Below are positions 7,349-25,244 of a DNA stretch of 64,000 bases, in pieces (position 1 is the stretch's first letter; each line of letters begins with the position of its first letter). The position numbers and the translations under genes were made by a program. Below the pieces are notes generated by a model. That model was not told the origin of the DNA and made no database searches. It saw only the letters and a list, made by a program, of their open reading frames with translations. The DNA is taken from the NCBI GenBank assembly GCA_963848295.1, contig CAWKDB010000004.1, positions 1-64,000 on the forward strand, in the 5' to 3' direction. The stretch comes from an uncultured delta proteobacterium. GTDB lineage: Bacteria > Myxococcota_A > Polyangia > Haliangiales > Haliangiaceae.

Positions 7349-10300
7349 TCACGCGGTCGCCGGTGCGGGATTCCCTCGCAGGTACGCGATCAACGGATCC
7401 TTCACGAGCTTGACGACGTCGGGGAGCATGTGGGGCAACAGTGCGTCCATGACCCCCGGGATCATCTGCGGCATCTGCGCTGCCATGTATTCGGGCATCG
7501 GTACCGATGCGGTGATCCGGTCGAGCATGACCGGTAGCAGCTCGGGCATCATCTTCGGAAGCAGAAACGCGAACAGGACGCCGAACATCGGCTTCATCGC
7601 GCGGAGCACGCCCGGAACCTTGCCGAACAACCGCATCACACGGCCCAACCCCCACGGCATCGCGGCGATCAGCTCGGGCCACATCGTCGCCAGGAGGCCA
7701 GCGAATCCCTCCGGGGTCAGCAGCGCGATCATCTTCTCGAACACGGCCCACTGCGCGCGGACCTCGGGATGCGGATCGGGCAGCTTGTAGCCGAGCCGCT
7801 CGGCGGCGAAGTGCGCGAGATCGACGACCTCGACATCGACCTTCCGCGCGTCGGCGCTGACGCGGAGCTGGAACTCGCAGCACGGGCACAAGGCGACGAC
7901 CTTCTCGGCGCCGACGGCAATCGCTTCGTCGAGCCGTGTCTTGCCGACATCGGCGGCGACGGCGGGATCCTTGAGCAAGGTGAGCACCGAGCCGCAGCAG
8001 TGCGCGTGCTCGCGATTGTGCTCCATCTCGCGGAGCTCGACATCGGGGAGCGCCGCGAGCAGCTCGCGCGGCGGCTCGTACACGCCCGAAGCGCGACCGA
8101 TGTGGCAGCTGTCGTGCCACGTCACGACGTCGAGGTGACGCTTGCCGTCGCCGACCGGTTTCGGAAACTGGAACGTCCCGGCCTCGAGCTTCTCGGACAC
8201 CAGCTCGGAGTAGTGCTTCGTGGTGATCGCGTAATCGATGCCGAGCTTCTCCGCCCACTCGGGATAGACCTTGCGCCACATCATGTCGCACGCCGGGCAG
8301 GACGTGATGACCGTGTCGGCGCCGGCTTCCTTCACTGCCGCCACGTTCTTCTTCATGGTCTCGGCGAACACGTCCCACTTGCCGGCGGCGAGCATCGGTG
8401 TCGCGCAACAGTTCTCTTGCTCGGCGAGGTAGGTGAAGTCAACGCCCGCCGCGTCGAGCAAGCGCACGCTGCCGATCCCGATGTCCTGCTCGACATAGCT
8501 CGCGGTGCACCCCGCGAAGTACACGTTCTTGCTCTTGTGCGACGGGCCGTGCGTGGCCTTCAGGTCCTCGGGAAACCACGCCGCGCGGTCCTTGCGATAG
8601 CCAGCCCAGATGTCGCCTTCAGCCCGCGTGGCGGCCTTCATGATCTCGAACGGCGGGAACGTCATGCGCCCCTCGTCCTGGATCAGCCGGCCGCGGAGCT
8701 TCATCCACGATGGCTCGACGGGCAATGCTTCCGGACAGCGGACGTTGCACAGCTCGCACGTCGTGCACGCGAGGAACGAGTCGACCATCTTCTGGCTCAT
8801 CTCCTCCTTGTGCTCGATGTACTCGCGCAAGAAGAACCACTTGCCGCGCGGCGACTGGCTCTCCCAGCCACGACCGTAGAACTGGTCGCATTCGTCGACG
8901 CAATACCCGCACTGCGAGCACGCGTAGGCGTACTCCACGACATCCGCCGGGATGCCGCGCTTGTCGCCATGTCGGCGCTCGCCCGGCTCGCTCTTCACGC
9001 GGTTGGCGACGAACCGCACGACCGGCTCGAACGCCTCGGCCGCGCGCACGGCCGTCGAGAGCACCCCCGCGCCGATCACCTTGCCCGGATTCATCACGCC
9101 TTCGGGATCCACGTCGTGCTTGAATCGTTCGAGCCGGTCGAGCGCTTCGGCACCGAGCACGTCGCGCGCCTTGTGGCGGAAGTACAGGCCGGTGCTGTAC
9201 GCGCGGCCGCCGTGGTGCTCGGCGATCTTGATCACGCTGAGCGCGAGCCCGAACGCGAGATCATAGCCGAGCGTGCGCTCGTCTTGCGGAATGAACCCGA
9301 GCAGCACGATCTCGGGCTCGCCGTTCGCGCCGCGCGCGACCGCGATCCCGTCGAGGACGAGCGGCTGATCGATCTTCGAACGCAGGTCTTCCAAGGTCTC
9401 GCGCAAGGTCTCGAGCGGGACCACGACCTCGGCGGGCACGAGCGACGGGCCGAGGCGCTTGACGCGCATGATGCGGAATCGATCGTCCCACTCGTGACGC
9501 GCGAGCTCGTCCGCGAGCCGTTCGGCGTGCGCGGTCCTGATCAATTCATCGAGCCGCGACGCCGTGGTCTCGGCATCGGCTGCACGCATCGCGAGCATGA
9601 CCAGGTAGCACACGGGCATCTCGACGTTGTCCTCGCGCGGATGCGCGCGCGGCGGACAGCGATTGGTGAGCTCGATCATCGCCGGATCGACAAACCCGAG
9701 CGACCAGATCGGAAGCTTCGCGGCGACCACACCGTCGAGCAGCGCCGCGAGCGAGACCGGATCCGGGCAGCGCACGCCGACGATCGCGAGCGGCTCCTGC
9801 GCCATCACGCGCAGCGTGACCTCCGAGATGAAACCCGTGATGCCCTCCGCACCGGAGACCACGTCGAGCTCGGCGCCCTCGAGGACGCGCACTTCACCCG
9901 ACGGCAACACCAGCCGTGCCGAGATGACATTGTCGCGAAACCAGCCGAACTCGTACGAACCGTAGCCGGCACCGCCTTGGGCGAGCCAGCCGCCGACGGT
10001 CGCCGACGGGTACGAGCTCGGGTAGAGCCGCAGCGTCAGTCCGTGCGTGCCGAGCTCGCGATCGAGCCGCTCCCACACGATGCTCGGCTCGACCGTCACG
10101 GTTCGTGCGGCGGGATCGACGCGAACGACGCGAGTCATGCGACGTAGGTCGACGACGAGCCCGCGATTCACCGGGACGACACCGCCGTAGCCGGAGGTGG
10201 CCTTCGCGCGAGGCGTGAGCGGTACGCCATGCTCCGCGGCCCAGCGAACGAGCTCGATCAGCTCGGCTTCGGTTTGCGGTTGGACGACCGCATCGGGAAC

Positions 10301-10444
10301 CGGGTGGCCAGATAACGGCCGGATCCGTCGCGGCAGCACGCCGACATCGTGCCCGTATAGCCGACGCTCCGTCGGATCAAACGAGACGCGGTCGGCGAAC
10401 ATCGTCTCGAGCTCTATGCGGCGCGCAGACGACAGTTCGTGCAT
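7349..10444 (-). CDS. FAD-binding plus 4Fe-4S plus CCG-domain oxidoreductase (GlcD/GlcF-type fusion)
   Basis: FAD-binding N-terminus, CSQCGYC and CTTCELC ferredoxin motifs, and cysteine-rich ENCC, HDSC, CCG and CPCC motifs. Confidence 0.9.
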   Translation of the reverse strand: MHELSSARRIELETMFADRVSFDPTERRLYGHDVGVLPRRIRPLSGHPVPDAVVQPQTEAELIELVRWAAEHGVPLTPRAKATSGYGGVVPVNRGLVVDLRRMTRVVRVDPAARTVTVEPSIVWERLDRELGTHGLTLRLYPSSYPSATVGGWLAQGGAGYGSYEFGWFRDNVISARLVLPSGEVRVLEGAELDVVSGAEGITGFISEVTLRVMAQEPLAIVGVRCPDPVSLAALLDGVVAAKLPIWSLGFVDPAMIELTNRCPPRAHPREDNVEMPVCYLVMLAMRAADAETTASRLDELIRTAHAERLADELARHEWDDRFRIMRVKRLGPSLVPAEVVVPLETLRETLEDLRSKIDQPLVLDGIAVARGANGEPEIVLLGFIPQDERTLGYDLAFGLALSVIKIAEHHGGRAYSTGLYFRHKARDVLGAEALDRLERFKHDVDPEGVMNPGKVIGAGVLSTAVRAAEAFEPVVRFVANRVKSEPGERRHGDKRGIPADVVEYAYACSQCGYCVDECDQFYGRGWESQSPRGKWFFLREYIEHKEEMSQKMVDSFLACTTCELCNVRCPEALPVEPSWMKLRGRLIQDEGRMTFPPFEIMKAATRAEGDIWAGYRKDRAAWFPEDLKATHGPSHKSKNVYFAGCTASYVEQDIGIGSVRLLDAAGVDFTYLAEQENCCATPMLAAGKWDVFAETMKKNVAAVKEAGADTVITSCPACDMMWRKVYPEWAEKLGIDYAITTKHYSELVSEKLEAGTFQFPKPVGDGKRHLDVVTWHDSCHIGRASGVYEPPRELLAALPDVELREMEHNREHAHCCGSVLTLLKDPAVAADVGKTRLDEAIAVGAEKVVALCPCCEFQLRVSADARKVDVEVVDLAHFAAERLGYKLPDPHPEVRAQWAVFEKMIALLTPEGFAGLLATMWPELIAAMPWGLGRVMRLFGKVPGVLRAMKPMFGVLFAFLLPKMMPELLPVMLDRITASVPMPEYMAAQMPQMIPGVMDALLPHMLPDVVKLVKDPLIAYLRGNPAPATA

Positions 10445-10584: not shown

Positions 10585-10595
10585 AGCATCGACTC

Positions 10596-11558
10596 GTGCT
10601 CTCACCTGGACTCGAAGTCGCGTGGCCTGGCTACGCACCGTGGGCGACGACGGTCGTGGCGTGCCGCCGCGAGTTCGTTCGCGTCGCGCGCAGCTTCTGG
10701 CTCATCCCCGAGCTGATCCCACCGATCGCGCGCGAGGACATCGCTCTGCTCTACTGTTTTTGTCGAAGGCTCGACGACGCCATCGACGAAGCGCCAGACA
10801 TCGAGCACGCGCGCGCCGCGCTCGCAGCATGGCGCGCGGAGCTCTCGGGGCACGCGGCGCCGCGGCCGCTGATCGCCGCGCTCCTCGCCGGGGTGCCACG
10901 CAACGGCTTGCCGCTCGAGTGCGCGTCGCACTTGCTCGAAGGGATGGAGGCCGATCTCGGCGTGGTCCAGATCTCCGACGACGACGAGCTCTTGCGCTAC
11001 GCGTATCGCGTGAGCGCCGCGGTCGGCCTCATGCTGGCACCGCTGTTGGGCGTGCGCGGCGAGGCGGCCGAGCAGCGCGTCGTCGATCTCGGCCTCGCGC
11101 TGCAGGTGAGCAACATCCTCATCGGCGTCGCGGGCGATGCGCGACGCGATCGCGTGTACTTGCCCGCGACTCGCCTCGCCGCCGCCGGCCTCAGCCCGGC
11201 GGATGTGTTGCGCGCTCCGGGAGATCCTCGGTTGCGCGTGGTGTTGCAGGGCTTGGCGGCCCTCGCCGACGACTATTATCGCAGCGCAGCCGCTGGAGCC
11301 GCGGTGGTCCCGCTCCGTTATCGACACGGCGTACTGCTGCTGGGCCGCGTGTACGGCGAGCTCGGTAGGCGCGCGGCCCGAGGAGAAGCGACGCCGGACG
11401 TCCCCGCGCAGCTGCCGTTCCGCGCCAAGGCGGTGCGGCTCGGGGAGCTGTTCCTCCGCGCATGGCACCCGCGAACGCTCGGGCTTGCGGCTTCACGTTC
11501 GCACGATGCGACGCTGCACCGAGCTGTCGCCGGCTTGCGCGGGGCTCACGTCGCTTGA
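10596..11558 (+). CDS. Squalene/phytoene synthase-family protein
   Basis: SFW, LYCFCRRLDDAIDE, YAYRVSAAVG, LGLALQVSNI and RVYLP motifs. Confidence 0.85.
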   Translation: MLSPGLEVAWPGYAPWATTVVACRREFVRVARSFWLIPELIPPIAREDIALLYCFCRRLDDAIDEAPDIEHARAALAAWRAELSGHAAPRPLIAALLAGVPRNGLPLECASHLLEGMEADLGVVQISDDDELLRYAYRVSAAVGLMLAPLLGVRGEAAEQRVVDLGLALQVSNILIGVAGDARRDRVYLPATRLAAAGLSPADVLRAPGDPRLRVVLQGLAALADDYYRSAAAGAAVVPLRYRHGVLLLGRVYGELGRRAARGEATPDVPAQLPFRAKAVRLGELFLRAWHPRTLGLAASRSHDATLHRAVAGLRGAHVA

Positions 11559-11564
11559 GCACCC

Positions 11565-11580
11565 GCGCACAGTTCTTGCG
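11565..11580 (+). promoter_or_regulatory. Degenerate sigma-54 promoter
   Basis: GCGCACAGTTCTTGCG (CG at -24); GTG 13 nt after the -12 C. Confidence 0.4.
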
Positions 11581-11591
11581 ATGCACCGGAT

Positions 11592-12557
11592 GTGAACGGA
11601 GTGAGCGCGCAACAATCGACATCATGGCTCGCGACTTCCACGTTACCGCGCATTGTTTTCGTGCTCGGCAAGGGCGGCGTGGGGCGGAGCACCGTCGCGG
11701 CGGCACTCGGTCTGCAGCTAGCGGAGCGCGGCGAGCGAGTGCTCGTGCTGGAGTGGGCGGTCGCCGATTGTATCGGCCCGTGGTTCGGCGCGCCGGTGGT
11801 CGGCTCCAAGCCAGTCTCGATCACGCCGCGCCTCTCGCTGTGCAACTATGCGCTCGAAGAAGCACTGCGCGCGTACTTCGTCGATCACCTTCATCTCGGG
11901 TTGGTCTATCGGCACATCGTCCGCTCCCCGGCGGTGGCACAGGTGCTCGAAGTCGCGCCCGGTGTTGCGGAGATGCTGTTCCTGGGCGAGCTGTGGTGGC
12001 TGATCACGCTCGCCGAACGCGAGGTCGGCTTGCGCTTCGATCGGATCGTCGTCGATGCGCCGGCGACCGGTCACGGGGCATCGCTCCTCGACGTGCCCTC
12101 GACCCTGTCGACCATGGGTGTGTCGAAGCTGCTCGCGGTGGAGACCCGCCGCGTGACCGAGATGATGGCGGATCCCGCGCGCGTCGGCGCGGTCGTCGTC
12201 AGCCTGCCGGAGCCGCTGGTGGTCGACGAGACGCTCGAGCTGATCCCCCGCGTCACGGCGCGCCTCGGCCGCGCGCCGCTCGCGCTGGTCGTGAACCGCA
12301 GCGCGGTGACGATCGCGAACGACGCAGAGCACCCGGCCTGGCTCGACGACCTGCGCGGGCGCGTCTCGGTGCACGCGTATCGCGCGATCGAGGCGTTGCG
12401 CGACGAGTTGCGCGCGCACGTCGAGCTCGAGCTCGAGCTGCGACGGCGGGTTCGAGGCGCGGTCGCTGCCGGCGTCGTTTCGCTCGCAGAGCTCCCAGGC
12501 CGTGCGCCGATCGACGTCGTGCGCAACATCGCGCACATCCTTGGTGAGTCGCGATGA
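11592..12557 (+). CDS. ArsA/Get3-family ATPase, subunit 1
   Basis: GKGGVGRST, APGVAE and DAPATGH motifs. Confidence 0.85.
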   Translation: MNGVSAQQSTSWLATSTLPRIVFVLGKGGVGRSTVAAALGLQLAERGERVLVLEWAVADCIGPWFGAPVVGSKPVSITPRLSLCNYALEEALRAYFVDHLHLGLVYRHIVRSPAVAQVLEVAPGVAEMLFLGELWWLITLAEREVGLRFDRIVVDAPATGHGASLLDVPSTLSTMGVSKLLAVETRRVTEMMADPARVGAVVVSLPEPLVVDETLELIPRVTARLGRAPLALVVNRSAVTIANDAEHPAWLDDLRGRVSVHAYRAIEALRDELRAHVELELELRRRVRGAVAAGVVSLAELPGRAPIDVVRNIAHILGESR

Positions 12558-13618
12558 CGGCACGACTCCATGTCCTGCTCGGCGGCGGCGGTGTCGGCAA
12601 GACCACGCTCGCGGCGGGATACGCGCTCGCGCTCGCGCAGCGCGGCAGGCGCGTCGGCCTGTTGGGGATCGATCCGTCGCGGCGACTCCAAGACGCCCTC
12701 GGCCTCGAGCTCGCGGATCTCGACGCGCCGGTCCCGGGAGCAGGCGACCTGCGCGCGGCGATCGTCCATCCGCATCAGGCTCTCGAGCGCTGGGCCGCGG
12801 AGACATGTCCGGATCGCGACGCGCTCGCACGGCTCGAGCGCAATCCGTTCTTTGCAGCGCTCGGCGATCGCCTCGCGACCGCAACCGATATCCTGGCCGC
12901 GGTGAGGATCGCGGAGTGGGCCGAGCGAGATCCGGCGCTCACCGATCTCGTGGTGGACACCGCACCCGGCATCGCCGCGGTTGATTTCCTGCGTTCACCC
13001 CGCCAGGTCGAGGCGCTCGTCAACGGTGCGCTGGTCCGGTGGTTGCGCGGCGCCGCGACCGCGAGCAATGGACACTTCCAGGGCGTGGGCTTCGTCGCCG
13101 GCCGGGTTCTCGGAGTGCTCTCCCGCGTCACCGGGACGCGCATGGTGGCCGATCTCGCCGAGTTCTTCACGCTCGCGCATGCGCCGCTCGAGCGCATTCT
13201 GGTGCGGATCGAAGCCGCGCAGCGCTGGCTCCAGTCCGCGCAGACCGAGCTATTGATCGTCACGTCGCCTCGCGACACCGGTGCGAGCGCGGCCCAACGC
13301 CTCGTGGAGGTCCTGCGCGACGAGCAGCTGTCGCCACGCGCGCTGATCGTCAATCGCACGTGGCCGGCCGACGTGTCGAGCGAGCTCGCCGCGATCGAGG
13401 TTCCGGCCGGATCGGAGGCGTTCGTCGGCTACGTGCGCGCGGAGCTCGATGCGCAGACTGCGGTCTTTGCGGCTGTCTCTAGACTCTCGACCGCCGTGGT
13501 CACGCTTGCTTCGAATCCGGCGCTCGATCGCGCACGGCGGCCAGCGCTCGTCGAGCTGGGGACGGCACTCGTGCTGGGCCTCGACGCAGCACCGCGCGAC
13601 CCCGCACGTGCGGCTTGA
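12554..13618 (+). CDS. ArsA/Get3-family ATPase, subunit 2
   Basis: GGGGVGKTT, IDPSRRL and DTAP motifs; 4-nt overlap with subunit 1. Confidence 0.85.
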   Translation: MTARLHVLLGGGGVGKTTLAAGYALALAQRGRRVGLLGIDPSRRLQDALGLELADLDAPVPGAGDLRAAIVHPHQALERWAAETCPDRDALARLERNPFFAALGDRLATATDILAAVRIAEWAERDPALTDLVVDTAPGIAAVDFLRSPRQVEALVNGALVRWLRGAATASNGHFQGVGFVAGRVLGVLSRVTGTRMVADLAEFFTLAHAPLERILVRIEAAQRWLQSAQTELLIVTSPRDTGASAAQRLVEVLRDEQLSPRALIVNRTWPADVSSELAAIEVPAGSEAFVGYVRAELDAQTAVFAAVSRLSTAVVTLASNPALDRARRPALVELGTALVLGLDAAPRDPARAA

Positions 13619-13642: not shown

Positions 13643-14293
13643 TCACCAGCCGAGGATCGCGACGACCACGCCGGTCGCGACGATCAGACCGCCGGCGGCG
13701 CTATCGCCATAGCGTTCCGCCCAGCGGCCTCGAATCACCGAAGCACCGGCGCGCGCCGCCGTGGTCAGCGCGACCATCGTGGCGATCGTCGCGAGCTCGT
13801 AGACCAGCACGATCGCGAGCGTCGCGCCGCGAGATAGGGGAGCCGCCGCGAACACGATCGGGACGACCGCGACGCATGGATCCGCGCAGTAGATCGCGAA
13901 CAGCGTCCACACGGTCGTCTTCGGCGCATCGTGAACGTGACCGAAGTGTGCGTGGTCGTGACCGTGAAGCCGACGCGCGATCAGGTGCCGCGCGCCCCAC
14001 AGGGCGTACGCGGCGCCAAACCCGATCAGCAACACGCCGGCGACTGCGCCGGAGCGCGCGCCCAACGCCTCGATCACCGCGACGCCGGAGACCAGGGCGA
14101 CGATGCCCAGCGTGGCCGAGACCGTCACGTGCCCGAAGCCGCAGAGGAGCGCGATCCGCGCGGTCCGGCGTAGCGACCAGCCTCGTGCGCGCGATACTGC
14201 AGCGACCGGGACCCAATGATCGGGCGCGAGCGAGTGGAGGGCGCCGACCGTCGCCGCCGCGATCGCCAGTGCGGGTCCGAGCGCTGCGGTCAT
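13643..14293 (-). CDS. Nickel/cobalt transporter-like membrane protein
   Basis: GALHSLAPDHW, His-rich loop HGHDHAHFGHVH, about 6 TM helices; overlaps the hypB stop. Confidence 0.8.
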   Translation of the reverse strand: MTAALGPALAIAAATVGALHSLAPDHWVPVAAVSRARGWSLRRTARIALLCGFGHVTVSATLGIVALVSGVAVIEALGARSGAVAGVLLIGFGAAYALWGARHLIARRLHGHDHAHFGHVHDAPKTTVWTLFAIYCADPCVAVVPIVFAAAPLSRGATLAIVLVYELATIATMVALTTAARAGASVIRGRWAERYGDSAAGGLIVATGVVVAILGW

Positions 14294-15054
14294 CGCGTGG
14301 TCCGGATCGACGACTGCGCGCGTGTACCCGCCGGCAGCGCCACGCGGAGTGACGTCGATGCGACCACTCGGGCGATCGGACGCCGCGCCTCGAGCCAGGC
14401 AAGCCACTCGGGGATGCCCTCGCCGGTCTTGCCGGAGATCGCGATCATCCGGGGTTCGGGCATGACGCGGGCGAGCCCGTCGCGGATCGCGTCGAGGTCG
14501 ACCTCGAGGTGCGGCAGAAGGTCGACCTTGGTGAGCAAGACGAGATCGGCGTGTTGGAACATCACGGGGTACTTGAGCGGCTTATCTTCGCCCTCGGTGA
14601 CCGACAGCGCGACGACGTTGGCGGCTTGGCCGAGATCGTAGATCGCGGGGCACACCAGGTTGCCGACGTTCTCGATGAAGAACACGTCGAGCTCGCGCCA
14701 CGGCAGATCGTGCAGGGCGTCGTGAACCAGGCGCGCATCGAGGTGACATGCCGATCCGGTCGTGATCGGCGCGGCCGTGATCCCCGCCGCGCGGAGGCGC
14801 TGCGCGTCGCGGTCCGTGGCCAGGTCACCGGAGACCGCTCCGAGCCGGAGGTGTGGGCCGGCGAGCCGGGCGGTTTGTTCGAGCACGGCGGTCTTGCCGG
14901 CGCCGGGCGATCCCATGAGGTTGATGGCCAGCACGCCGGCCTCGACGAAGTGCTCGCGCAGATGCGCCGCGCGCGCGTCGTTGTCGGCGAGGATGCGCTC
15001 GTGGATCGCCACCGGCACGAGCTCCGAGTCACCACATCCGCAGTCTTCACACAT
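14290..15054 (-). CDS. hypB: Hydrogenase nickel incorporation GTPase
   Basis: MCEDCGC, GSPGAGKT, CHLDA and ENVGNLVCP motifs. Confidence 0.95.
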   Translation of the reverse strand: MCEDCGCGDSELVPVAIHERILADNDARAAHLREHFVEAGVLAINLMGSPGAGKTAVLEQTARLAGPHLRLGAVSGDLATDRDAQRLRAAGITAAPITTGSACHLDARLVHDALHDLPWRELDVFFIENVGNLVCPAIYDLGQAANVVALSVTEGEDKPLKYPVMFQHADLVLLTKVDLLPHLEVDLDAIRDGLARVMPEPRMIAISGKTGEGIPEWLAWLEARRPIARVVASTSLRVALPAGTRAQSSIRTTR

Positions 15055-15388
15055 CGCGAACCTCCATCTCGATCCGATCGAGGAAGATGTCATCACCCGC
15101 TTCGAGCCGCGCCGGGCCGTCGCAGCAGCGCAGGACCGCGCCGCGAACCAGCGCGCGATCGCATTTCCGGCATCGCCACACCGCCGGTACGGGAACGATC
15201 GCGAGCTCGGCATCCTCACAGACCGTGCGTGCGCGAAACGTCTCGAAGGCCGTGCGTAGCAGCGGAATCTCCACGCCGGCGAGCTCGCCGATCCGGACGT
15301 GCAGGCGGTGCACGATGGCTCCCGGCCGCGTGTCGACTTCGCGCTGCACGCGATCGACCAGCGACGCGACGATCGAGTACTCGTGCAC
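15047..15388 (-). CDS. hypA: Hydrogenase nickel metallochaperone
   Basis: MHEYS start, IGELAGV, and CRKC/RCC zinc site. Confidence 0.95.
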   Translation of the reverse strand: MHEYSIVASLVDRVQREVDTRPGAIVHRLHVRIGELAGVEIPLLRTAFETFRARTVCEDAELAIVPVPAVWRCRKCDRALVRGAVLRCCDGPARLEAGDDIFLDRIEMEVRDV

Positions 15389-16221
15389 TACTCGACTCCG
15401 AACAGCGGCGCTCGGCGCGCGAAGAACGCGGCGAGACCTTCGGCGAAGTTCGGTCCGTTCGCGATCCGCGCGAGCTCCGTGAGCTCGGCGTCGAGATGAT
15501 TATCGAGACGATCCATCCCGGCGGCGCGATTGAGCAACTGCTTGGCGACCCCGACCGCGGTCGTCGGAGCTTCCGCGAGCCGGTGCGCCAGCTCGAGGGC
15601 ACGCGCGTCGAGATCGGCGTCGGCGGTGACCTCGTTCAACAGGCCGATCGCGAGCGCCTCGCGCGAGGTCAGCCGCGGCCCGAGCAGGACGAGCTCCATC
15701 GCCTTGCGAAAGCCGACGAGGCGCGGCAGGAAAAACGTCGTGCTCTCGGCGCCGGTCAGCCCGGTCTTGAAGTAGCCCCACTCGAACGTCGCGCGCTCGG
15801 ACGCGATCACGAGATCGCACGCCATCGCGATCCCGAGGCCCCCGGCGGCGGTCGGGCCGTCGACCGCGGCGAGCCACGGCTTCGGCGCGCGGCGGATCTC
15901 GGAGATCGTCGAGTGGATGTACTCGAGGATCTGCTTGAACACCGCGCCGTAGCCGCCGGCCGCGGGCCGTGCCTCGGGAGACAGGTAGGCGACGTCCTCG
16001 TCGCCGCCCCGCGCGATGTACTTGAGATCGGCGCCGCTGCAGAACACGCCGCCATCGCCGCGCAGGACGACCGCGCGGACCTCGCGATCGCGCGCGAGCT
16101 GGAGGCCGGCCTTGCGCAAGTCCTGGGCGGTCTCGACGTCGAGCGAGTTGAACCGATCACGCCGCGCGATCGTGAGCACGCCGACGGCGCCGTGGCGTTC
16201 GATGCGGATGTGGTTGCCCAT
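15388..16221 (-). CDS. Enoyl-CoA hydratase/isomerase (crotonase) family protein
   Basis: FCSGADL, KPWLAAVDG, AAGGLGIAMACD and EGLAAF motifs. Confidence 0.9.
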   Translation of the reverse strand: MGNHIRIERHGAVGVLTIARRDRFNSLDVETAQDLRKAGLQLARDREVRAVVLRGDGGVFCSGADLKYIARGGDEDVAYLSPEARPAAGGYGAVFKQILEYIHSTISEIRRAPKPWLAAVDGPTAAGGLGIAMACDLVIASERATFEWGYFKTGLTGAESTTFFLPRLVGFRKAMELVLLGPRLTSREALAIGLLNEVTADADLDARALELAHRLAEAPTTAVGVAKQLLNRAAGMDRLDNHLDAELTELARIANGPNFAEGLAAFFARRAPLFGVE

Positions 16222-16228
16222 GGTGCCC

Positions 16229-17266
16229 TCAGCAGATCCTCGGTTGGAGCTCGCCTTCAGCCTCGACGAGCAGCCGGCGGCCGAACCCGGTATCGGCGAT
16301 CACGCTGCCGGGTCGGTCCTCGACGCACTCGCCGACGATTGCCGCTCCGCGGCCGAGCGGGTGCGACCGGATCGCATCGAGCACCGCGTCGGCGCGCTCG
16401 GGGCGGATGCCGATCACGGCCTTGCCTTCGTTCGCGACCAGCAATGGATCGATCCCGAGTAGCTCGCCAACCGCGCGTACATCATCGCGGATCGGGACAG
16501 CGCGTTCGTCGAGGATCACGCCGACGCGGCTCTTGTCGGCCATCTCGCGTAGCGCGCTCGCGAGCCCGCCGCGGGTCGGGTCCTTCATCGCGACGATCGC
16601 ATCGCCGCCGACCGCGAGCGCGCGGCGGATCAAGCTGTTGAGCGGCGCGACGTCGGATGCGAGCGCGGTATCGAGCGCGAGCTCGCCGCGGGTCGCGAGG
16701 ATCGCGAGCCCGTGGTCGCCCATCGTGCCGGTGACGATGATCCGATCGCCGGGCCGCAGCCCACAGTCCGGCACGACCCGCGAGGTCAGGGCGACGCCGG
16801 TCGTCGTCAGCACGATCCGATCGAGCTCGCCCTTGCGCATCACTTTGGTATCGCCAGTGACGATCGTCGTGCCGGCTTCCTCGCAGGCGATCCGGATCGA
16901 CGCCCAGATTCGCTCGAGCTCGGCGCGCGGGAAGCCGTCCTCGAGGATCGCGGCGCAGGTGAGCGCGAGAGGCTCGGTCGCGCCCATCATCGCGAGGTCG
17001 TTGACGGTGCCGCACACCGCCAGCCTGCCGATGTCGCCGCCGGGAAAGAACACCGGTTGCACGACGTGGGAATCGGTCGTCACGACCAGCCACCTGTCAC
17101 CGACCGGGATCGCCGCGCCGTCGTCCATCGCCGACAGACCGATGCCTCCGGCAACGTCACCGAATCCAGGTGCGAACACCTGCTCGATCAACGCGCGCAT
17201 CGCGCCACCACCGGCGCCATACTTCAGCGTGATCCGCTCGTCGACGAAACTCGGATTCCTGATCAC
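16229..17266 (-). CDS. hypE: Hydrogenase maturation carbamoyl dehydratase
   Basis: GAGG, TTDSHVV, GTVNDLAMMGA, DPTRGG and C-terminal PRIC; GTG start overlaps the hypD stop. Confidence 0.95.
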   Translation of the reverse strand: MIRNPSFVDERITLKYGAGGGAMRALIEQVFAPGFGDVAGGIGLSAMDDGAAIPVGDRWLVVTTDSHVVQPVFFPGGDIGRLAVCGTVNDLAMMGATEPLALTCAAILEDGFPRAELERIWASIRIACEEAGTTIVTGDTKVMRKGELDRIVLTTTGVALTSRVVPDCGLRPGDRIIVTGTMGDHGLAILATRGELALDTALASDVAPLNSLIRRALAVGGDAIVAMKDPTRGGLASALREMADKSRVGVILDERAVPIRDDVRAVGELLGIDPLLVANEGKAVIGIRPERADAVLDAIRSHPLGRGAAIVGECVEDRPGSVIADTGFGRRLLVEAEGELQPRIC

Positions 17267-18402
17267 GACGCGCGCCTGCCGATCTGTCGCAAGTCCGGGT
17301 GGCCGCCGTACTGATGCCAGATCTTGCACGTCCCCTCGGCGCTCACCATGCAGGCCCCGACCGGCGAGCCGGGGGTGCACTCGTTACCGAACAGCGTGCA
17401 GTCGTGCGGCGACGCGATGCCCGCCATGATGTCGCCGCACTGGCACTGCGCGACGAGCGCCGGAGGCGTCTGATCCAGCAGCGCCCCGAGGTCGATGTCG
17501 AACCGCCTTCGCGCGTCCCATGCCGCGAACTCGTCGCGCAATCTGAGATTGCCGTTCGGCACGTGCGCGATCCCGCGCCATCGGCCGCCCTGGAGCTCGA
17601 ACACGCGCCACAGGCGCGCTTGTGCCTCGAGGTTGCCTTCGCGGGTCACGCAGCGCGGAAAGCAGTTGTCAACACTTGGCTCGCCCGACGCGATGATCTC
17701 GACGAGCCGCACCAGGCCCGCGAGGATGTCGAGCGGTTCGAAGCCCGCGACAACGACCGGCACCCGATGGCGCTCGACGAACCGCTCGAACACGCCCCAT
17801 CCGGTGATCGTTGCGGCATGCCCGGCGGCGAGAAAGCCTTCGATCTTCGAGCCGGGCATCTCGGCGACGATCTCCATGACCGGCGGGATGTACTTGTGCG
17901 CCGACAGGATCGAGAAGTTCGGCGGCGGATCGGCAAGCAGCACCGCGGCCGTCGCGACCGCGGTCGTCTCGAACCCCGATGCGAAGAACACGAGCGGCTC
18001 GGAAATCGTTCGTGCGAGCTCGGCGGCCTGTCCCACGCCGTACACGACGTCGACCTTCGCGCCCTCGGAGCGCGCGTCGGCGAGCGACTTCGCGGTGCCC
18101 GGGACGCGGAGCATGTCGCCGTAGGTCGCGATCCGGACGCCTTGGAGCGCGAGTGCGACGGCCTCGTCGACCTCGGGCACGTCGGTGACGCACACCGGGC
18201 ACCCCGGGCCCATCCTGACGTCGAGCTCCGCGGGCAACGCCGCGCGTAGCCCGAACTTCGCGATTGCCTGCTCGTGACTCCCGCACACGTGCATGATCGA
18301 TACGGGGGCTCGGCCGATCGCGCGAGCTCGATCGGCGAGGGTCGCCTCGAGCGCTGCGGCGCGCTGGGGATCGCGAAACTTCAGCTGGTCGAAGCTATTC
18401 AC
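17263..18402 (-). CDS. hypD: Hydrogenase maturation protein HypD
   Basis: HVCGSHE, GPGCPVC, GFETT and PVGACMVSAEGTC motifs. Confidence 0.95.
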   Translation of the reverse strand: MNSFDQLKFRDPQRAAALEATLADRARAIGRAPVSIMHVCGSHEQAIAKFGLRAALPAELDVRMGPGCPVCVTDVPEVDEAVALALQGVRIATYGDMLRVPGTAKSLADARSEGAKVDVVYGVGQAAELARTISEPLVFFASGFETTAVATAAVLLADPPPNFSILSAHKYIPPVMEIVAEMPGSKIEGFLAAGHAATITGWGVFERFVERHRVPVVVAGFEPLDILAGLVRLVEIIASGEPSVDNCFPRCVTREGNLEAQARLWRVFELQGGRWRGIAHVPNGNLRLRDEFAAWDARRRFDIDLGALLDQTPPALVAQCQCGDIMAGIASPHDCTLFGNECTPGSPVGACMVSAEGTCKIWHQYGGHPDLRQIGRRAS

Positions 18403-18682
18403 GGTGGGATCCCGTCGCGTCGAGCTCGCCACGAACGTCGGCAGCCATGAGGTCATCGGCGTCGGCCCGCCGCAGCAGCTCGTCGTACATCGCGAGGGTC
18501 TCGCCGATCTCCGAGGCCGGGATCCGCCGGATCGCGAAGCCGACGTGGTTGAGCACGTAGTCTCCAGGCGCGACGGGCGCATCCACGACATCCAGGCGCA
18601 CCGGCTTGGTGACGCCCCAGAAATCGACGAGCGCGATGTCGCCTTCGATCGAGATCACGCGGCCGGGAACGCCGAGGCACAT
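18395..18682 (-). CDS. hypC: Hydrogenase chaperone HypC
   Basis: MCLGVPG start and GDYVLNHVGFAI. Confidence 0.95.
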   Translation of the reverse strand: MCLGVPGRVISIEGDIALVDFWGVTKPVRLDVVDAPVAPGDYVLNHVGFAIRRIPASEIGETLAMYDELLRRADADDLMAADVRGELDATGSHRE

Positions 18683-18740: not shown

Positions 18741-18783
18741 CGCACCGATTGCGCGGTGCGCGGGCGATCGCGAAGATCATGCG
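18741..18783. promoter_or_regulatory. Paired CGCA-N5-TGCG sites
   Basis: CGCACCGATTGCG (18741) and CGAAGATCATGCG (18771), 30 bp apart. Confidence 0.6.
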
Positions 18784-21032
18784 CGGGCGATCGCGTCTGC
18801 GACGAGTGCCTGACCGAGTGCGATACCGCCGTCACCCGGCGGGACCTCGCGGTGGACATAGACCTCGAGATCGCGCAGGGCTCGTCCAATGCCCTCGGCG
18901 AGCCGGGGATTCTGGAATGCTCCGCCGGTGAGCACGATCGGCAACCGTCCGCGGGCTTCGACCGCGGCGCGCACGCGCTCGACGGTCGCGACGATCAGCG
19001 TGTCGTGGAACCGCGCCGACACGACCGACGGCGGAACTCCGGATTGCAGCTCGCCGGCAACCGCACGGACGAGCGGGCGCAGATCGACGGCTGGCAACTC
19101 CCCGGCGACCGCGAACGGGTAGACACCGTGTGCGCCGTCGGCCGCGACGTTCCATGCGACCGCGAGCTGCCCCTCGTAGCTCGAGGCTCCGCGGCCCAGC
19201 CCGAGTGCGCCGATGCCGTCGAAGAACCGCCCGATGCCGCGCGCGTACGACGTGTTGACCTCCGCGCGGATCATGCCCCGAACGACCGCGATCGAGCGCG
19301 CGGGCACGGCGTCGAACAGCGGCAGGTTTGCGAGCGGCGCCTCGCCGCCGAACGCATCGTCGAGTAGCGCCAGCGCGATTCGCCACGGCTCGCGGATCGC
19401 GAGATCGCCGCCGGCGAGGGCGACCGGCCGGAACGTCGCGAGCCGCTCGAACCCGGCGTAACGTGCGAGCAGGATCTCGCCGCCCCACGCGGTGCCGTCG
19501 GTGCCCCAGCCGGTGCCGTCGTAGGCGACGCCGATGACCGGACCGTCGAGCCCGTGCTCGGCCATCGCGCTCGCGACGTGCGCGTGGTGATGCTGCACGC
19601 CGATCCGACGCTCCGGGCGATCGTGCGCGTATCGCGTCGACAGGTACCCGGGATGCAGATCGTAGGCGATGACCTCCGGCCGAACTTCCAGGATCTGTTC
19701 CATCCGAGCGATCGCACCCTCGAAGAACCCGAGCGCGGGGACGGTCTCGAGATCCCCGATGTGGGGCCCGAGGTACGCGCTATCGCCGGCGGCGACGCAG
19801 AACGTGTTCTTGAGCTGCGCACCGACGGCGAGCACCGGCCGCGCGACCGCACGCGCCAGCGGGATCGGGCGCGGCGCATAGCCGCGCGATCGGCGGAGCA
19901 GCGTCGGCCGCCCCGCGATCACGCGTGCGACCGAGTCATCGCAGCGCGTCGCGATCGCACGGTCGTGGACGAGCAATGCGTCGGCGATCGCGCCGAGCCG
20001 GTGCACGGCCTCGGCGTTGTCGGCGCAGATCGGCTCTTCGGACGGATTGGCCGAGGTCATCACCAGCGGTCGGCCAACCGCGGCGAGCAGCAGGTGATGG
20101 AGCGGGGTGTACGGCAGCATCAGCCCGACGAGCTCGGTCTCGGGCGCGACCGCGCGGGCGAGCGCGGCGTCCGTGCGACGACGAACGAGCACGATCGGCC
20201 GCTCCGGTGCCACGAGCAACGCGATCTCGGCGGCGTCGAGCTCGGCGAGCGCGTGCGCGGCGACGAGATCGGCCACCATCACGGCGAACGGCTTTTCGTC
20301 GCGGCGCTTGCGCCGGCGCAGCGTCGCGATCGCCGGCGCGCAGGTCGCGTCGCACGCGAGATGGAACCCGCCGAGGCCCTTGATCGCGACGACCTCGCCC
20401 CGCTCGAGCCGCGCGGCGGCGTCGCCAAGCGGATCGGCGGTCGCGATCGGCGCTCCGTCGGGGGACCACAGCGCAAGTCGGGGGCCGCACATCGGGCACG
20501 CGTTGGGTTGCGCATGAAATCTGCGATCGCGCGGATCGTCGTACTCCCGCTGGCAAGCCGGGCACATCGCGAACGGCGCCATCGTCGTCGCCGGCCGGTC
20601 GTAGGGCACCCCCGTCGCGATCGTGAAGCGAGGACCGCATGCCGTGCAGTTCGTGAAGGCGTAGCCGTGCCGGCGATCGTGCGGGTCGGCGATTTCGCGC
20701 GCGCAGTCGGGGCACGTCGCGAGGTCGGGTGGGATCGACAGCGCGCGCGGACCGCCCTCGACGCTGTGCACGATCACGAAGTCGTTCGCCGACTCGTGCG
20801 GAATCGCTTCGGCGACCAGCTCGCGGACGCGCGCCGGCGAGGGTGGCTCGCGTAGTCGAGCGACCAAGCGATCGAGCGCGTGCTCGCCGCCGAACGCTTC
20901 GATCGTCACGCCGCGGGCATGGTTGTGCACTCGCCCGGCGACGCCGATCTCGTGCGCGATGCGGTAGACCCACGGCCGGAATCCGACTCCCTGCACGGTC
21001 CCGCGGATCTCGATGCGCAGGCCTCCATTCAT
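18777..21032 (-). CDS. hypF: Carbamoyltransferase HypF
   Basis: GTVQGVGFRP, zinc fingers CPDC..CTACGPRF and CPAC..CPMCGP, KGLGGFHL, QHHHAH and PGDGGIALGQ motifs. Confidence 0.95.
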   Translation of the reverse strand: MNGGLRIEIRGTVQGVGFRPWVYRIAHEIGVAGRVHNHARGVTIEAFGGEHALDRLVARLREPPSPARVRELVAEAIPHESANDFVIVHSVEGGPRALSIPPDLATCPDCAREIADPHDRRHGYAFTNCTACGPRFTIATGVPYDRPATTMAPFAMCPACQREYDDPRDRRFHAQPNACPMCGPRLALWSPDGAPIATADPLGDAAARLERGEVVAIKGLGGFHLACDATCAPAIATLRRRKRRDEKPFAVMVADLVAAHALAELDAAEIALLVAPERPIVLVRRRTDAALARAVAPETELVGLMLPYTPLHHLLLAAVGRPLVMTSANPSEEPICADNAEAVHRLGAIADALLVHDRAIATRCDDSVARVIAGRPTLLRRSRGYAPRPIPLARAVARPVLAVGAQLKNTFCVAAGDSAYLGPHIGDLETVPALGFFEGAIARMEQILEVRPEVIAYDLHPGYLSTRYAHDRPERRIGVQHHHAHVASAMAEHGLDGPVIGVAYDGTGWGTDGTAWGGEILLARYAGFERLATFRPVALAGGDLAIREPWRIALALLDDAFGGEAPLANLPLFDAVPARSIAVVRGMIRAEVNTSYARGIGRFFDGIGALGLGRGASSYEGQLAVAWNVAADGAHGVYPFAVAGELPAVDLRPLVRAVAGELQSGVPPSVVSARFHDTLIVATVERVRAAVEARGRLPIVLTGGAFQNPRLAEGIGRALRDLEVYVHREVPPGDGGIALGQALVADAIARA

Positions 21033-21034
21033 CG

Positions 21035-21589
21035 TCACAACCCCAACGCGCGGGCGCCCTCGTCGTGCGCGCCGAGCGCCTGCTCGCGATGATGAGGCTC
21101 GATGCCCAGCCGCCCGAGCTCCACGATCACCGCCTCGACCAGCCCGTCGAGGCTCGCGGCGACCTCCGGCGTACAACCCAGCCGGAGCTCGGTCATCGCG
21201 GGCACGACGCCGACGATCACCACTTCGTCGGGATACCGATCGCACAACGTCGCTCCCGCGAGCAGGTCTGCGACGCCGATCTGGTGCGCCGAGAGTCGCT
21301 CGTAGACCGCGGGCGCGACGTCATCGCCCGCTAGGCGGATCAGCGTTCCGGGTGGGCCGTCACCACGCACGGCGTCGACGAGGATCACGCGGTCGGAGGC
21401 GGCGATCAACGCGAGCAGATCGAGCCCGAGCGTACCGCCGTCGACGATGCGTACGCCATCCGGCATCGCCCACTCGCGACGCACGCGGTGCACGGCGGCG
21501 ACGCCGGCGCCGTCGTCGCCGCAGATGATGTTGCCCAGGCCCAGCACGAGGACCCGGATCCGATCCGGGTCACTTGTCGGTGTCGTCAT
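21035..21589 (-). CDS. Hydrogenase maturation endopeptidase (HyaD/HybD family)
   Basis: [21 protein letters not shown] and SAHQ motifs. Confidence 0.9.
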
Positions 21590-22292
21590 CGGGGATCCGG
21601 TCCTTCGGCAGGAACTTGTAGCCACTGAAGATCGAGTCGAGCGTGCCGTTCTTCTCGACGCGCGACACGAGCAGCGCGCTGAAGATGTGGTGAACCACGA
21701 AGCCGAGCAGCAGCCACATCACGACGTGATGGATCCACCGCGCCCCCTGGACACCGTGGAAGATCGGCAGCAGGAATCGCCAGACGTGCATGTAAGAGGT
21801 GGCATCCACCGAATAGATCGCGAACCCCGTGGCGATCATCACCAGGTACAGCCCGAACACCGCGACGTAGGTGAGGCCGGCGAGCGGGTTGTGGCCGATC
21901 ACCGGCGGCGGTACGCGCTGCAAGAACATGTAGAACTTGAGGCTCTCGATCAGGCCGCGGCGGCGACGGCGGCTGGTCGGGATGAATTGCCGCCAGTTCG
22001 TTCGGCGCGGCCCGATGAACATCCAGACGATCCGGGACGCGACCGCGAGCGAGAACACGATCGCCGCATACGAGTGGATCACCTTGGCGTATCCGGTCAC
22101 GAAGTGCTCGCGCGCGGGCCCGGATGCCGAGATGAACGGATGGCCCAGGTAGATGCCGGTGACGGCGAGGACGATCATCGAGAACACGATCAGCCAGTGC
22201 GTCGCGCGCACGACCAGGTCCCACACGTAGACCGGCTCGAGCGCCGCCTCGCCGGCCTGAGCGTCAGTGCTCGGCGCCCGCGCGGTCGCCAT
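21570..22292 (-). CDS. hyaC: Ni/Fe-hydrogenase b-type cytochrome subunit
   Basis: [19 protein letters not shown], His ligands and SIFSGYK. Confidence 0.9.
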
Positions 22293-24017
22293 CACCGCAC
22301 CTTGACACGCGATAGCTCGCGCCCGGCCGGGTCGATCGACGTGGACCCCGCACGCCATGCACGGATCGAACGAATGCACGGTGCGCAGGATCTCGAGCGG
22401 CTGTTCGGGATCCGCGACCGGCGTGCCGAGCAGCGCGGCCTCGTAGGGGCCGGGCGACTTCATGCGCGTCGCGCGGTCCCGCGTTCCACGTGCTCGGCAC
22501 GATGCACTGGTAGTGCGCGATCGCTGCCGTTCTCGATGTGCGACCCAGTGGCCGAGCGACGCCGCGCGGCGCCTCGTGGAAGCCTGCGCCCACCGCCTTC
22601 GCGGGCCAGCTCGACGGATCCCACTTGTCGTTGTCGTGGATGCGGAGCTCGTCCGCGACCCATGTTGTCCGCGAGCTCGTCGACCCAGTCGCCCATCTTG
22701 TCGGCGAGTACAGCGGTCTCGATGCCGCGCGCCGCGACGCGCCCGAGCGTCGAGAAGAGCGCCTCGGGGCCGACGCCGAGCTTGGCGAGCGCGCCGTCGA
22801 CCAGCGCCTTCACCTGTGGCGTGCCCCGACGCGTACGCGACGAGCATGCGCGCGAGCGGACCGACCTCCATCGGCACGCCGTCGTAGCGCGGCGACTTGA
22901 GCCAGCGAATACTTCGCGGTCGGTGTCGAGCCGCTCGTAGGGCGGCTTCGGGCCCGTGTACGTCGGCTTCGTCTCGCCCACCGACGGATGCAGCGCGACG
23001 TCGTCGCCGCCCTCGTAGTCGTACCAGGAGTGCTTGACCTGCTCGGTGATCTTGGCGGGATCGAGCTTCTCGATGTGCGACAGGTCGCGGTTGCGGATGA
23101 CGCCGCTCGGCAAGAAGCGCGGCGCGTTCGGGCCGTCGTCGAGCGGGTACTCGCCGTAGACCATGTAGTTGCCGACGCCCGGCGCCGTAGCCCGCCCAGT
23201 CCTTGTAGAACGACGCGACCGCGAGCAGATCCGGGATGTAGACGCGCGTTGACGAACGCGCGTGCGCCTTCGCGATGAGCTGCGCGCAGCGCCGCGATGG
23301 TGCCGATGTTGAGCGCCGCTTGCGTGTTCGGATCGACCGGCGTCGCCATGCCGCCGACGAGGAAGCTCTGCAGGTGCGGGTTCTTGCCGCCGAGGATCGC
23401 GTGCAGCTTGATGAACTCGCGCTGCCAGTCGAGCGCCTCGAGGTAGTGCGCGACCGCCATCAGGTTCGCCTCGGGCGGCAGCTTGTAGGCGGGATGGCCC
23501 CAGTACGCGTTCGCGAACGGGCCGAGCTGACCGCGATCGACGAACGCCTTGAGCCGATCGCTGCACGCCTGTGAAGTACGTCGCGCTCGAGAGCGGCCAG
23601 TCGGAGATCGACTGCGCGAGCGGCGAGGTCTTCGGCCGGGTCGGCCGACAGCGCCGACACGACGTCGACCCAGTCGAGCGCGTGCAGGTGATAGAAGTGG
23701 ATCACGTGGTCCTGGACGCATCTGCGCGGCGATGATCAGGTTGCGCAAGACGCGTGCGTTGGGCGGCGGCACGGCGCCGATCGCGTCCTCGACGGCGCGA
23801 ATCGACGCGATCGCGTGCACCGTGGTGCACACGCCGCAGATCCGCTGGCGTGAACACCCACGCGTCGCGCGGATCGCGACCCTTGAAGGATCAGCTCGAT
23901 GCCGCGGAACATCGTCGAGGACGACCACGCGTCCTTGACGAGGCCCCCGTCGACCTCGGCCTCGATGCGGAGGTGACCCTCGATGCGGGTCACGGGGTCG
24001 ACGACGATGTGGGTCAC
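22292..24017 (-). pseudogene. hyaB: [NiFe]-hydrogenase large subunit (group 1), many frameshifts, probably sequencing error
   Basis: [41 protein letters not shown] and DPCMACGVH are spread over all three frames. Confidence 0.9.
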
Positions 24018-25187
24018 GAGTCACCTGTCTTGTCGGAGGCGGATTCGGTCGGCGTCGCCGCGGATTCGGCGGGCGGAGGAGGCGCCGTTGGCGCGTGCGC
24101 GTCACGTCGTTTGTCGAGCTTGCTCTTGCCGATCTGGACCAGCGCCGTGGCCGGCGAACGCGACGCCGACCGCGGCGGCCGCGAGGGCGCCGACCTTGTC
24201 GATCGCCGGTCGCGTCGCCGAAACCGGGGATCGCCCGACAGGTGACTGTAGAACGGCGTCATTCGGTCCCAGAACTCTGGCTCTGCGCAGCCGATGCACG
24301 GGTGACCGCACCCGATCGGCCAGTTGGTGTCGTCGTTCCAGCGGATGTTCGGGCAGTTCTGGAACGTCGACCGGACCCTTGCAGCCCATCTTGTAGAGGC
24401 AATGGCCGTCGCGATGGCCCTCGTCGCCCCACATCTCGACGTACTGCCCGGCATCGAAGTGCGCGCGTCGCTCGCAGTCGTCGTGGATCGACTTGCCGTA
24501 GGCGAACATCGGTCGATTGAGGTGATCGAGTGGCGGCCAGCGGTCGAACGTGAGGAAGTACGTGATGAGCGGCGACCAGGTTCTCGCCGTTGACCGGACA
24601 TGCCGGCATGTTGATCAGCGTTCTTGATCCCGGGCACGGCGTCGGCCACGCTGAGCGCGCCCGTCGGGTTCGGCGCCGCGGCCGGCAGCCCGCCGAACGC
24701 GGCGCACGTGCCGACCGCGATCACCGCGAGCGCATCCTTGCAGGCCTCCTCGCGCGATCTGCAGCGCCGAGCGGCCGCCGATCGTGCAGTACGCGCCGTC
24801 GGCGCCGATCGGGATCGACCCTTCGATCACGACGATGTACTGACCCTTCTTCGTCGAGAGCGTCGTCGCGAGGGCCTCCTCGGCGCGCTTGCCGGCCGCC
24901 GCCATGATCGTCTCGTGGTAGTCGAGGGAGAGGAGATCGAGGATGACATCGGCAGCGGTCGGCTTGGACGCGCGCAGGAACGATTCGGTGTTGCCGGCGC
25001 AGTCCTGAAACTCGAGCCAGACGACCGAAGGCTTCTGCTTGGTCTCGAGCGCGGTGAGGATCTTCGCGGCCGCCGATCGCTGCAGTCCGAGCATCGCGGC
25101 GATCCCTGCACAGAACCCCACGAAGTCGCGGCGAGTGATGCCACGGGCTTCGAGCTCGCGCTCCAAGGAGCTGATGTCACGCGCCAT
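24014..25187 (-). pseudogene. hyaA: [NiFe]-hydrogenase small subunit with Tat signal and C-terminal anchor, frameshifted as given
   Basis: TRRDF Tat motif, [37 protein letters not shown] and GHPCIGC across frames. Confidence 0.9.
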
Positions 25188-25199
25188 GTGATCGTTCCC

Positions 25200-25215
25200 A
25201 GCAAGTCATGTGCCT
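25200..25215 (-). promoter_or_regulatory. Sigma-54 promoter of hydrogenase operon
   Basis: AGGCACATGACTTGCT, near-consensus; ATG 14 nt after the -12 C. Confidence 0.85.
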
Positions 25216-25244
25216 GCAAACGGAGGCTCCATGCAGGACAATGG

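Follow-up and report, generated by a model that had tools for sequence, protein, structure and literature searches.

Does a crotonase gene that sits within a hyp operon encode a stand-alone counterpart of HypX, able to supply the carbon monoxide (CO) ligand of [NiFe] hydrogenase? The question is raised by the stretch of DNA analysed here (the window), the first 64 kb of contig C4 (CAWKDB010000004.1) of an uncultured delta proteobacterium. The assembly amounts to 7.78 Mb in 11 contigs with 68% G+C and is 85% complete; the nearest protein relatives carry labels of Kofleriaceae or Myxococcales metagenome-assembled genomes. HypX (HoxX; C. necator pHG1, R. leguminosarum, A. aeolicus) is the N10-formyl-tetrahydrofolate-dependent CO-ligand synthase of [NiFe] hydrogenase; it combines an N-terminal formyltransferase domain with a C-terminal crotonase-like one, sets CO free from formyl-CoA and is needed for the CO ligand when oxygen is present. 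The gene in question, located at 15388..16221 on the minus strand, starts with ATG and encodes a protein of 277 amino acids (aa; P0001). In a preliminary description of the locus, the gene was suggested to be a CO source of the HypX kind, either split or alternative; this suggestion gains support from conserved linkage, a Tyr/Glu pair, grouping in a phylogenetic tree and formyltransferase genes situated directly upstream in six of 80 related loci. On the strength of such sequence comparisons, we consider it probable that the crotonase is a stand-alone HypX-like CO-ligand maturase, likely acting by decarbonylation of formyl-coenzyme A (formyl-CoA).

The protein clearly belongs to the crotonase superfamily. 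Pfam ECH_1 matches it with 161 bits (E 4.3e-47, cut-off 27 bits), and the open reading frame (ORF) holds only ECH_1/ECH_2. Seven nucleotides (nt) separate the TGA of hypE (16229-16231) from the crotonase ATG (16219-16221), which is directly preceded by GAGGG. At the other end, the crotonase TAG (15388-15390) and the GTG start of hypA have one base in common. Both junctions are as the preliminary description gave them. Gene order on the minus strand is small subunit, large subunit, cytochrome b, protease, hypF, hypC, hypD, hypE, crotonase, hypA and hypB, and the hyp genes and the crotonase gene are intact in the assembly.

This type of organization is widely preserved. Relatives were scanned with one genome per species, and the best 80 (65-88% identity) of 199 relatives were analysed as loci; they come from Myxococcota, Acidobacteriota (Thermoanaerobaculia, Vicinamibacterales), Rokubacteria/Methylomirabilia and Gemmatimonadales. 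Except for two loci with almost no upstream DNA (L065, L085), all of them (78 of 80) have hypE upstream on the same strand. hypE and the crotonase are no more than 52 nt apart in 66 of the 75 loci measured, and hypA follows the crotonase at -8 to +6 nt in every one of the 61 loci where this distance was measured. The order hypE-crotonase-hypA, which the preliminary description had singled out, is thus conserved, and the opposite outcome, loss of linkage to hyp genes, was not observed. Twelve loci without hypAB carry mutually unrelated downstream genes (TctABC, Rieske/cytochrome b, multihaem cytochromes, a transposon-like ATPase), with no conserved formyl-CoA supplier downstream of the crotonase. 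Locus L075, from a record titled Nitrosotalea sp., is an archaeon-binned contig with a bacterial-type hypF-hypD-hypE-crotonase block, whose crotonase is 68% identical to that of the window; its archaeal assignment is probably a binning error.

Similar linkage is seen at closer range. An ortholog (84-86% identity) occurs in four of 24 congeneric genomes, all four of which keep the order hypD-hypE-crotonase-hypA-hypB; the next-best crotonase in any congeneric relative reaches at most 42% identity. The 20 congeners without ortholog include one unpublished genome (G010). Among 401 sampled Myxococcota genomes, 29 contain an ortholog (threshold E<=1e-70) and 115 contain hypE. All 29 carriers possess hypE, and no ortholog was found in the 286 genomes searched that have no hypE. 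The two genes are adjacent in 28 of the 29 carriers, the exception (G401) having both at contig ends. Comparison with seven relatives gave pairwise ratios of nonsynonymous to synonymous substitution rates (dN/dS) of 0.13-0.25 for the crotonase, 0.13-0.21 for hypE, 0.11-0.26 for hypD and 0.20-0.42 for hypA. Purifying selection on the crotonase equals that on hypD and hypE, its dN/dS is lower than that of hypA, and the gene is a member of the hyp operon. A passenger role, also mentioned in the preliminary description, is unlikely in view of the hypE linkage and of the confinement of the ortholog to hypE-bearing Myxococcota genomes.

To which kind of crotonase does the protein belong? All named NCBIfam models score far under their cut-offs, the alternative type of oxepin-CoA hydrolase (NF046063) with 177.5 bits against 300 and PaaG (TIGR02280) with 146.1 bits against 345. 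Public annotation of the relatives reads PaaG or enoyl-CoA hydratase. The generic PaaG-type look ascribed to the protein earlier holds insofar as its nearest named models are PaaG-like, but these remain below cut-off and the PaaG-type Pro-Asp is replaced. PaaG and the alternative oxepin-CoA hydrolase are its nearest generic neighbours, with 33-38% identity to solved PaaG structures, and they share with it the general crotonase core and Tyr or an aromatic residue at position 150; unlike them, it has Gly-Ala-Glu in place of Pro-Asp and no paa gene context.

An alignment with E. coli PaaF, CaiD and PaaG specifies these differences. The window protein has the Pfam ECH_1 fold and the oxyanion-hole glycines of the enoyl-CoA hydratases PaaF and CaiD, but both of their Glu residues are replaced, Gly130 and Tyr150 standing at the corresponding positions. 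We take these two glutamates to be the catalytic ones of classical enoyl-CoA hydratases. The segment LIPDCGG of E. coli PaaG corresponds to LTGAEST of the window protein; the Asp of the PaaG Pro-Asp loop is presumably the catalytic residue, with which the title of the D136N mutant entry 6SLA agrees. Gly-Ala-Glu replaces this Pro-Asp in all 81 family members, and Tyr150 and Glu159 are likewise invariant in all 81. The oxyanion-hole segments CSGAD (61-65) and AAGG (125-128) have been retained, with little or no variation among family members.

We next consider HypX. By Muraki et al. 2019 (PMC6802093), Tyr416 and Glu426 of A. aeolicus HypX are named as candidate bases for formyl-CoA decarbonylation, and R. 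eutropha mutants at HypX Tyr439 or Glu449 are reported as HypX-minus. BLASTP aligns the window crotonase with the C-domain of C. necator HypX (30% identity over 251 aa, 57 bits) and pairs Tyr150 with HypX Tyr439 and Glu159 with HypX Glu449. All 12 HypX sequences compared, which come from Pseudomonadota, Actinomycetota and Cyanobacteriota, contain Y-x3-G-(N)-L-x-G-S-E, five of them with exactly the spacing of the window protein; the motif common to the family and HypX reads Tyr-x3-Gly-Leu-x-Gly-[Ala/Ser]-Glu. The distinctive trait that both have in common, and that is absent from generic neighbours, is Gly-[Ala/Ser]-Glu instead of Pro-Asp-Gly.

Gene position is a second likeness. C. necator HypX (597 aa) is encoded directly after hypE on pHG1, and HypX follows hypE in all five annotated records that show the upstream gene (Cupriavidus, Bradyrhizobium, Rhizobium, Mesorhizobium, Sulfurovum). 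The Sulfurovum order, hypE-hypX-hypA, matches the position of the crotonase in the window. On two plasmids, of Sulfurovum mangrovi (L103:3001-4618) and Mesorhizobium huakuii (L105:1555-3132), canonical hypX is annotated in pieces, as a formyltransferase coding sequence and a separate hypothetical or crotonase coding sequence; these are either broken or naturally split genes. HypX thus resembles the window crotonase in its crotonase-fold domain with the Tyr...Glu pair and the Y-x3-G-L-x-G-[A/S]-E motif, and in the place of its gene directly after hypE. The two differ in several respects: the window crotonase has no N-terminal formyltransferase domain and 277 aa as against 560-600, its family keeps an extra conserved FKQILEYIH helix segment and a FEW triplet before the Tyr, members occur in other phyla and beside other hydrogenase types, and identity is only about 30%.

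Similarity searches with HypX lead mostly to the same protein. When all ORFs of the same genome with 150 aa or more (24,836) were searched by phmmer with the HypX C-domain, the window crotonase ranked first (42.2 bits; next crotonase 28.4); tblastn of the HypX C-domain against this genome missed it. Five other carrier genomes, representing four phyla, were searched as well; in four of them the hyp-linked crotonase is the only HypX match at E<=1e-8, and full HypX was found in none of the five. HypX was detected neither in the window's own genome nor, at E<=1e-25, in any of the 401 Myxococcota genomes, while the C. necator HypX query recovers itself on pHG1. A hidden Markov model (HMM) built from 12 HypX C-domains gave 64-95 bits (median 81) for the 81 family members. 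The median for 126 other near representatives is 54, the top single-domain protein among them scoring 78 and a double crotonase 104, and E. coli PaaF, PaaG, CaiD, MenB and ScpB score 25-48 bits.

To estimate evolutionary relationship, a tree of 75 rows was constructed with IQ-TREE (LG+C20 with posterior mean site frequencies, rooted on E. coli MenB), from which P0240 and one long paralog of the same genome had been left out after a quick tree. Thirteen hyp-linked crotonases, 10 HypX C-domains and five near representatives form one clade with support 100/99, nested among PaaG-like crotonases. The stand-alone representative placed beside HypX (P0136) is a singleton on a 3-kb contig. The AlphaFold2 model of the window crotonase has a mean predicted local distance difference test score of 89.6, low only at residues 76-88, and its best structural match among 1000 crotonase chains has Z 34.4. 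It superposes at full length on residues 285-549 of A. aeolicus HypX (6J0P; 250-253 residues, Z 30.0-30.5, root-mean-square deviation 2.4-2.7 A, ranks 11-25 of the 1000 chains), whereas only about 213 residues superpose on PaaG because the C-terminal helices of the model fold back onto its own core. This superposition of a predicted model is compatible with kinship and not discriminating. Comparison with the HypX C-domain, advised in the preliminary description, yields a joint clade, subject to the topology test given below, and a full-length fit. Several of these tests point the same way, towards the window crotonase as the closest relative of HypX, none of them decisively. Kinship with the HypX decarbonylase domain appears well supported but not proven.

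If the crotonase represents one half of HypX, does the other half occur with it? As stated in the preliminary description, neither hypX nor a formyltransferase gene is present in the window; PF00551 matches the genome at two places, open frames of 256 and 328 aa that both lie on contig C11, and the contig of the window is free of matches. The picture differs in a minority of relatives. The gap between hypE and the crotonase exceeds 500 nt in six loci. A Formyl_trans_N gene (E 5e-14 to 4e-19) lies between the two in L074, L088, L092, L093 and L095, and in L085 a sixth formyltransferase was found by tblastn with the partner formyltransferases at the cut upstream end, which makes six of 80 loci with such a gene directly upstream of the crotonase. 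In the sixth of these wide gaps, on a complete Thermoanaerobaculia chromosome (L089:2205-3473), an IS481-family transposase lies between hypE and the crotonase and occupies the site where neighbouring lineages have the formyltransferase.

A search for longer proteins retrieved six, of which three (P0395, P0397, P0398; 488-614 aa) consist of Formyl_trans_N and a crotonase domain. Their Formyl_trans_N domain is 35-51% identical to the stand-alone partners. Their crotonase domain carries FEWAYx[KR]T[GA]LTGAE and is 46-71% identical to the window protein, and in another quick tree its nearest rows are hyp-linked crotonases, not HypX. These three could be merged gene calls instead of fusions. The longer representatives of the 50% library (P0130, P0148, P0140, P0169, P0180 and others) are double crotonases or apparent merged or frameshifted calls, one of them (P0134) including HypA, and no formyltransferase was found in any of them. 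Three arrangements of the family are therefore seen: the crotonase by itself, in 74 of 80 loci and in the window, a pair of genes, and apparently a fusion. Since the partner formyltransferases are barely similar to the N-domain of HypX (E 0.02-0.5), the pairing may have arisen separately from HypX.

The following mechanism can be proposed, in which CO release from formyl-CoA and the supply of the substrate are both inferred. The thioester carbonyl would be held in the conserved crotonase oxyanion hole (CSGAD 61-65, AAGG 125-128), Tyr150/Glu159 could act as the base for decarbonylation, as proposed for HypX, and the released CO would be taken up by the iron on HypCD. Formyl-CoA might be supplied by a housekeeping formyltransferase or by an unknown route. 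Possible routes to formyl-CoA are listed by Sawers et al. 2025 (PMC12134894), and in the part of that paper available to us none of them is tied to the hyp-linked crotonase family. A stronger version of the proposal is possible but doubtful: the crotonase alone might be a complete, formyltransferase-independent CO-ligand synthase, using a pool of formyl-CoA (or another acyl-CoA) from a route not yet linked to hydrogenase maturation.

A number of observations weigh against the assignment of the crotonase as a HypX-like CO source. Some of them concern kinship. The Tyr is not specific to HypX: of the 150 nearest 50%-cluster representatives, 76 combine it with Asp, mostly in a Pro-Asp loop. Raw similarity is nearer to a generic crotonase (133 bits to 2EJ5) than to HypX (57 bits), and the HMM scores overlap, generic single-domain proteins reaching 78 bits while the lowest family member has 64. 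The approximately unbiased (AU) test does not reject a position of HypX outside the subclade (log-likelihood difference 17.3, p-AU 0.22) when the enclosing PaaG-like subclade of 54 rows is constrained so that its 44 non-HypX rows stay together without it; this grouping was chosen with the tree already at hand, and the stem of HypX, at 3.4 changes per column, is very long. A Foldseek search of the pdb returned, among the matches listed, only generic crotonases and not HypX; Foldseek is without discrimination inside the crotonase superfamily.

Other such observations concern supply and distribution. Formyltransferase genes are linked to the crotonase neither in 74 of the 80 loci nor in the window. 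An ortholog of the hyp-linked formyltransferase is missing from the window's own genome, where the best match is a PurN-like gene (28% identity, E 4e-5), and the models for formyl-CoA transferase (139.7 of 504 bits) and oxalyl-CoA decarboxylase (94 of 739 bits) stay below cut-off there. The genome thus offers no recognisable source of formyl-CoA. Furthermore, 86 of the 115 hypE-bearing Myxococcota genomes have neither an ortholog of the crotonase nor a detected HypX. Hydrogenase maturation therefore does not generally need the crotonase, which belongs to one lineage of hyp modules and not to all.

The linked hydrogenase adds points of the same kind. Its structural genes are frameshifted in the assembly. 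The large-subunit gene (22295..24035, minus strand), the only PF00374 locus in the genome, was recovered by ungapped tblastn against the intact ortholog of a congener (G023) as 14 pieces with 12 frame changes, most pieces being 78-95% identical and one 57%. The small-subunit gene (24101..25214, minus strand), likewise the only one in the genome, shows four or more frame changes when compared with the same congener. Indel errors of the assembly are a likelier explanation than true pseudogenes, because the shifts run mostly in one direction and three cox1 loci elsewhere in the assembly are likewise split over frames. Public contigs of relatives (four runs over 21500-25300, low depth or related) have one base fewer at several frame-change sites (22559, 22920, 23180/1, 23721, 23847/9 and 24368/9). 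ORF 21570-22877 (minus strand) unites the last part of the large subunit with the complete b-type cytochrome in one frame, which is probably an effect of the frame changes and not a true fusion.

As to hydrogenase type, the intact large subunit of G023 resembles the A. vinosum and Salmonella Hyd-5 type, and that of a second congener (G012) resembles the E. coli Hyd-2 type. The small subunits of G023 and G012 are without the Cys-Thr-Cys-Cys signature of C. necator HoxK. Given these types and the missing signature, a tie to oxygen tolerance like that of HypX is not evident. At the corresponding site (about 25000-25060 in the window; L013:16768-18114) the window and G023 read DCAGNTES, HoxK reads ECTCCSES and G012 reads ECTGCTES, so that Asn stands in the window and G023 small subunits where HoxK and G012 have Cys. 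The genome encodes haem-copper oxidases (COX1, 469 bits), hence the organism can respire oxygen.

Could other explanations account for the same locus? That a generic PaaG-type metabolic crotonase came to lie in the operon by chance, with no role in maturation, is highly improbable and close to refuted. The PaaG or enoyl-CoA hydratase annotation of its relatives and the PaaG-like character of the best NCBIfam models are what such a passenger would show, but all named models score far below cut-off, no paa genes are nearby, the PaaG Pro-Asp is replaced, linkage to hypE is kept across four phyla and the ortholog is missing from all 286 hypE-less Myxococcota genomes. A role in maturation through another CoA-thioester reaction deserves more attention, although we regard it as unlikely. 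Hydrolysis, isomerisation or decarboxylation of another acyl-CoA would then release no CO from formyl-CoA, and the product could be a different one-carbon donor or a regulator of the Hyp machinery. Operon membership and selection speak equally strongly for this explanation, being silent on the substrate, and it suits both a genome with no recognisable formyl-CoA source, together with 74 of 80 loci that have no formyltransferase, and nearest generic relatives that are PaaG-like isomerases and hydrolases. Against it stand the distinctive motif shared with the HypX decarbonylase domain and the identity of the partner gene, which, where present (six of 80 loci), is always a formyltransferase and recurs as the same domain in the fused forms.

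There is also a small chance that the crotonase is the remnant of a two-gene HypX-like module, inactive alone for CO synthesis and kept as a CoA-binding or scaffold subunit of HypCDE. HypX itself is described (PMC6802093) as binding CoA constitutively and forming complexes with HypC and HypD, which would suit such a subunit, as does the lack of a partner formyltransferase in the genome. A remnant is harder to reconcile with the catalytic Tyr/Glu and the oxyanion-hole motifs, which are invariant or nearly so in all 81 members, mostly from formyltransferase-less loci, or with a dN/dS equal to that of catalytic Hyp proteins. Moreover, most loci (74 of 80, across four phyla) have the crotonase without a formyltransferase, a better fit to a working enzyme than to a relic.

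The remaining genes of the operon, all on the minus strand, are as follows. hypE (16229..17380) matches TIGR02124 with 374 bits (cut-off 251.6), its product ends in QPRIC with the PRIC motif, and its true start is probably near 17236. hypD (17263..18402; TIGR00075, 385 bits) was given the GTG start at 18402, by which it overlaps the end of hypC. The 95-aa product of hypC (18395..18682) begins with MCLGVPG and was recognised by translation, its counterpart in a relative (L014) matching Pfam HupF_HypC. The hypF carbamoyltransferase gene lies at 18777..21245 (TIGR00143, 736 bits). Downstream of the crotonase follow hypA (15047..15388; Pfam HypA, E 2.8e-21), with a GTG start and a product that begins MHE, and hypB (14290..15219; TIGR00073, 256 bits), whose start is uncertain, the listed ORF overlapping hypA. 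The hydrogenase maturation endopeptidase (21038..21706) is 71% identical to the G023 protease, which itself matches Pfam HycI, and the b-type cytochrome subunit of the hydrogenase (21570..22226) matches Ni_hydr_CYTB (E 7.9e-30) within the joint frame 21570-22877 mentioned above.

Beyond hypB, three tandem genes for proteins of 324-357 aa occupy 10587-13618 on the plus strand, convergent with hypB. The last of them has an ArsA/Get3-type ATPase match (BagB-like, 117 bits, below cut-off), and the first two have no match in Pfam or NCBIfam. On the minus strand, a fused GlcD/GlcF-like dehydrogenase of 1031 aa is encoded at 7349-10444; it comprises flavin adenine dinucleotide-binding oxidase domains, two CCG cysteine-rich domains and a 4Fe-4S dicluster.

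No description of a HypX-like crotonase in stand-alone or two-gene form turned up in a full-text literature search, with subscription papers outside its scope. The family offers a concrete and cloneable candidate, a 277-residue protein locked into the hyp operons of abundant soil phyla, which has the HypX catalytic pair and is usually without the formyl-transfer half. If it does release CO, the pathway would centre on the decarbonylase, the formyl donor step would be interchangeable (missing altogether, encoded separately or fused), and surveys of genomes that record HypX as absent would overlook a source of CO. Should the crotonase prove to be a formyltransferase-independent synthase, soil bacteria that have no HypX would possess a second and widespread enzyme to supply the CO ligand of [NiFe] hydrogenase, which would be a pointer to the long-sought precursor of the "anaerobic" pathway.

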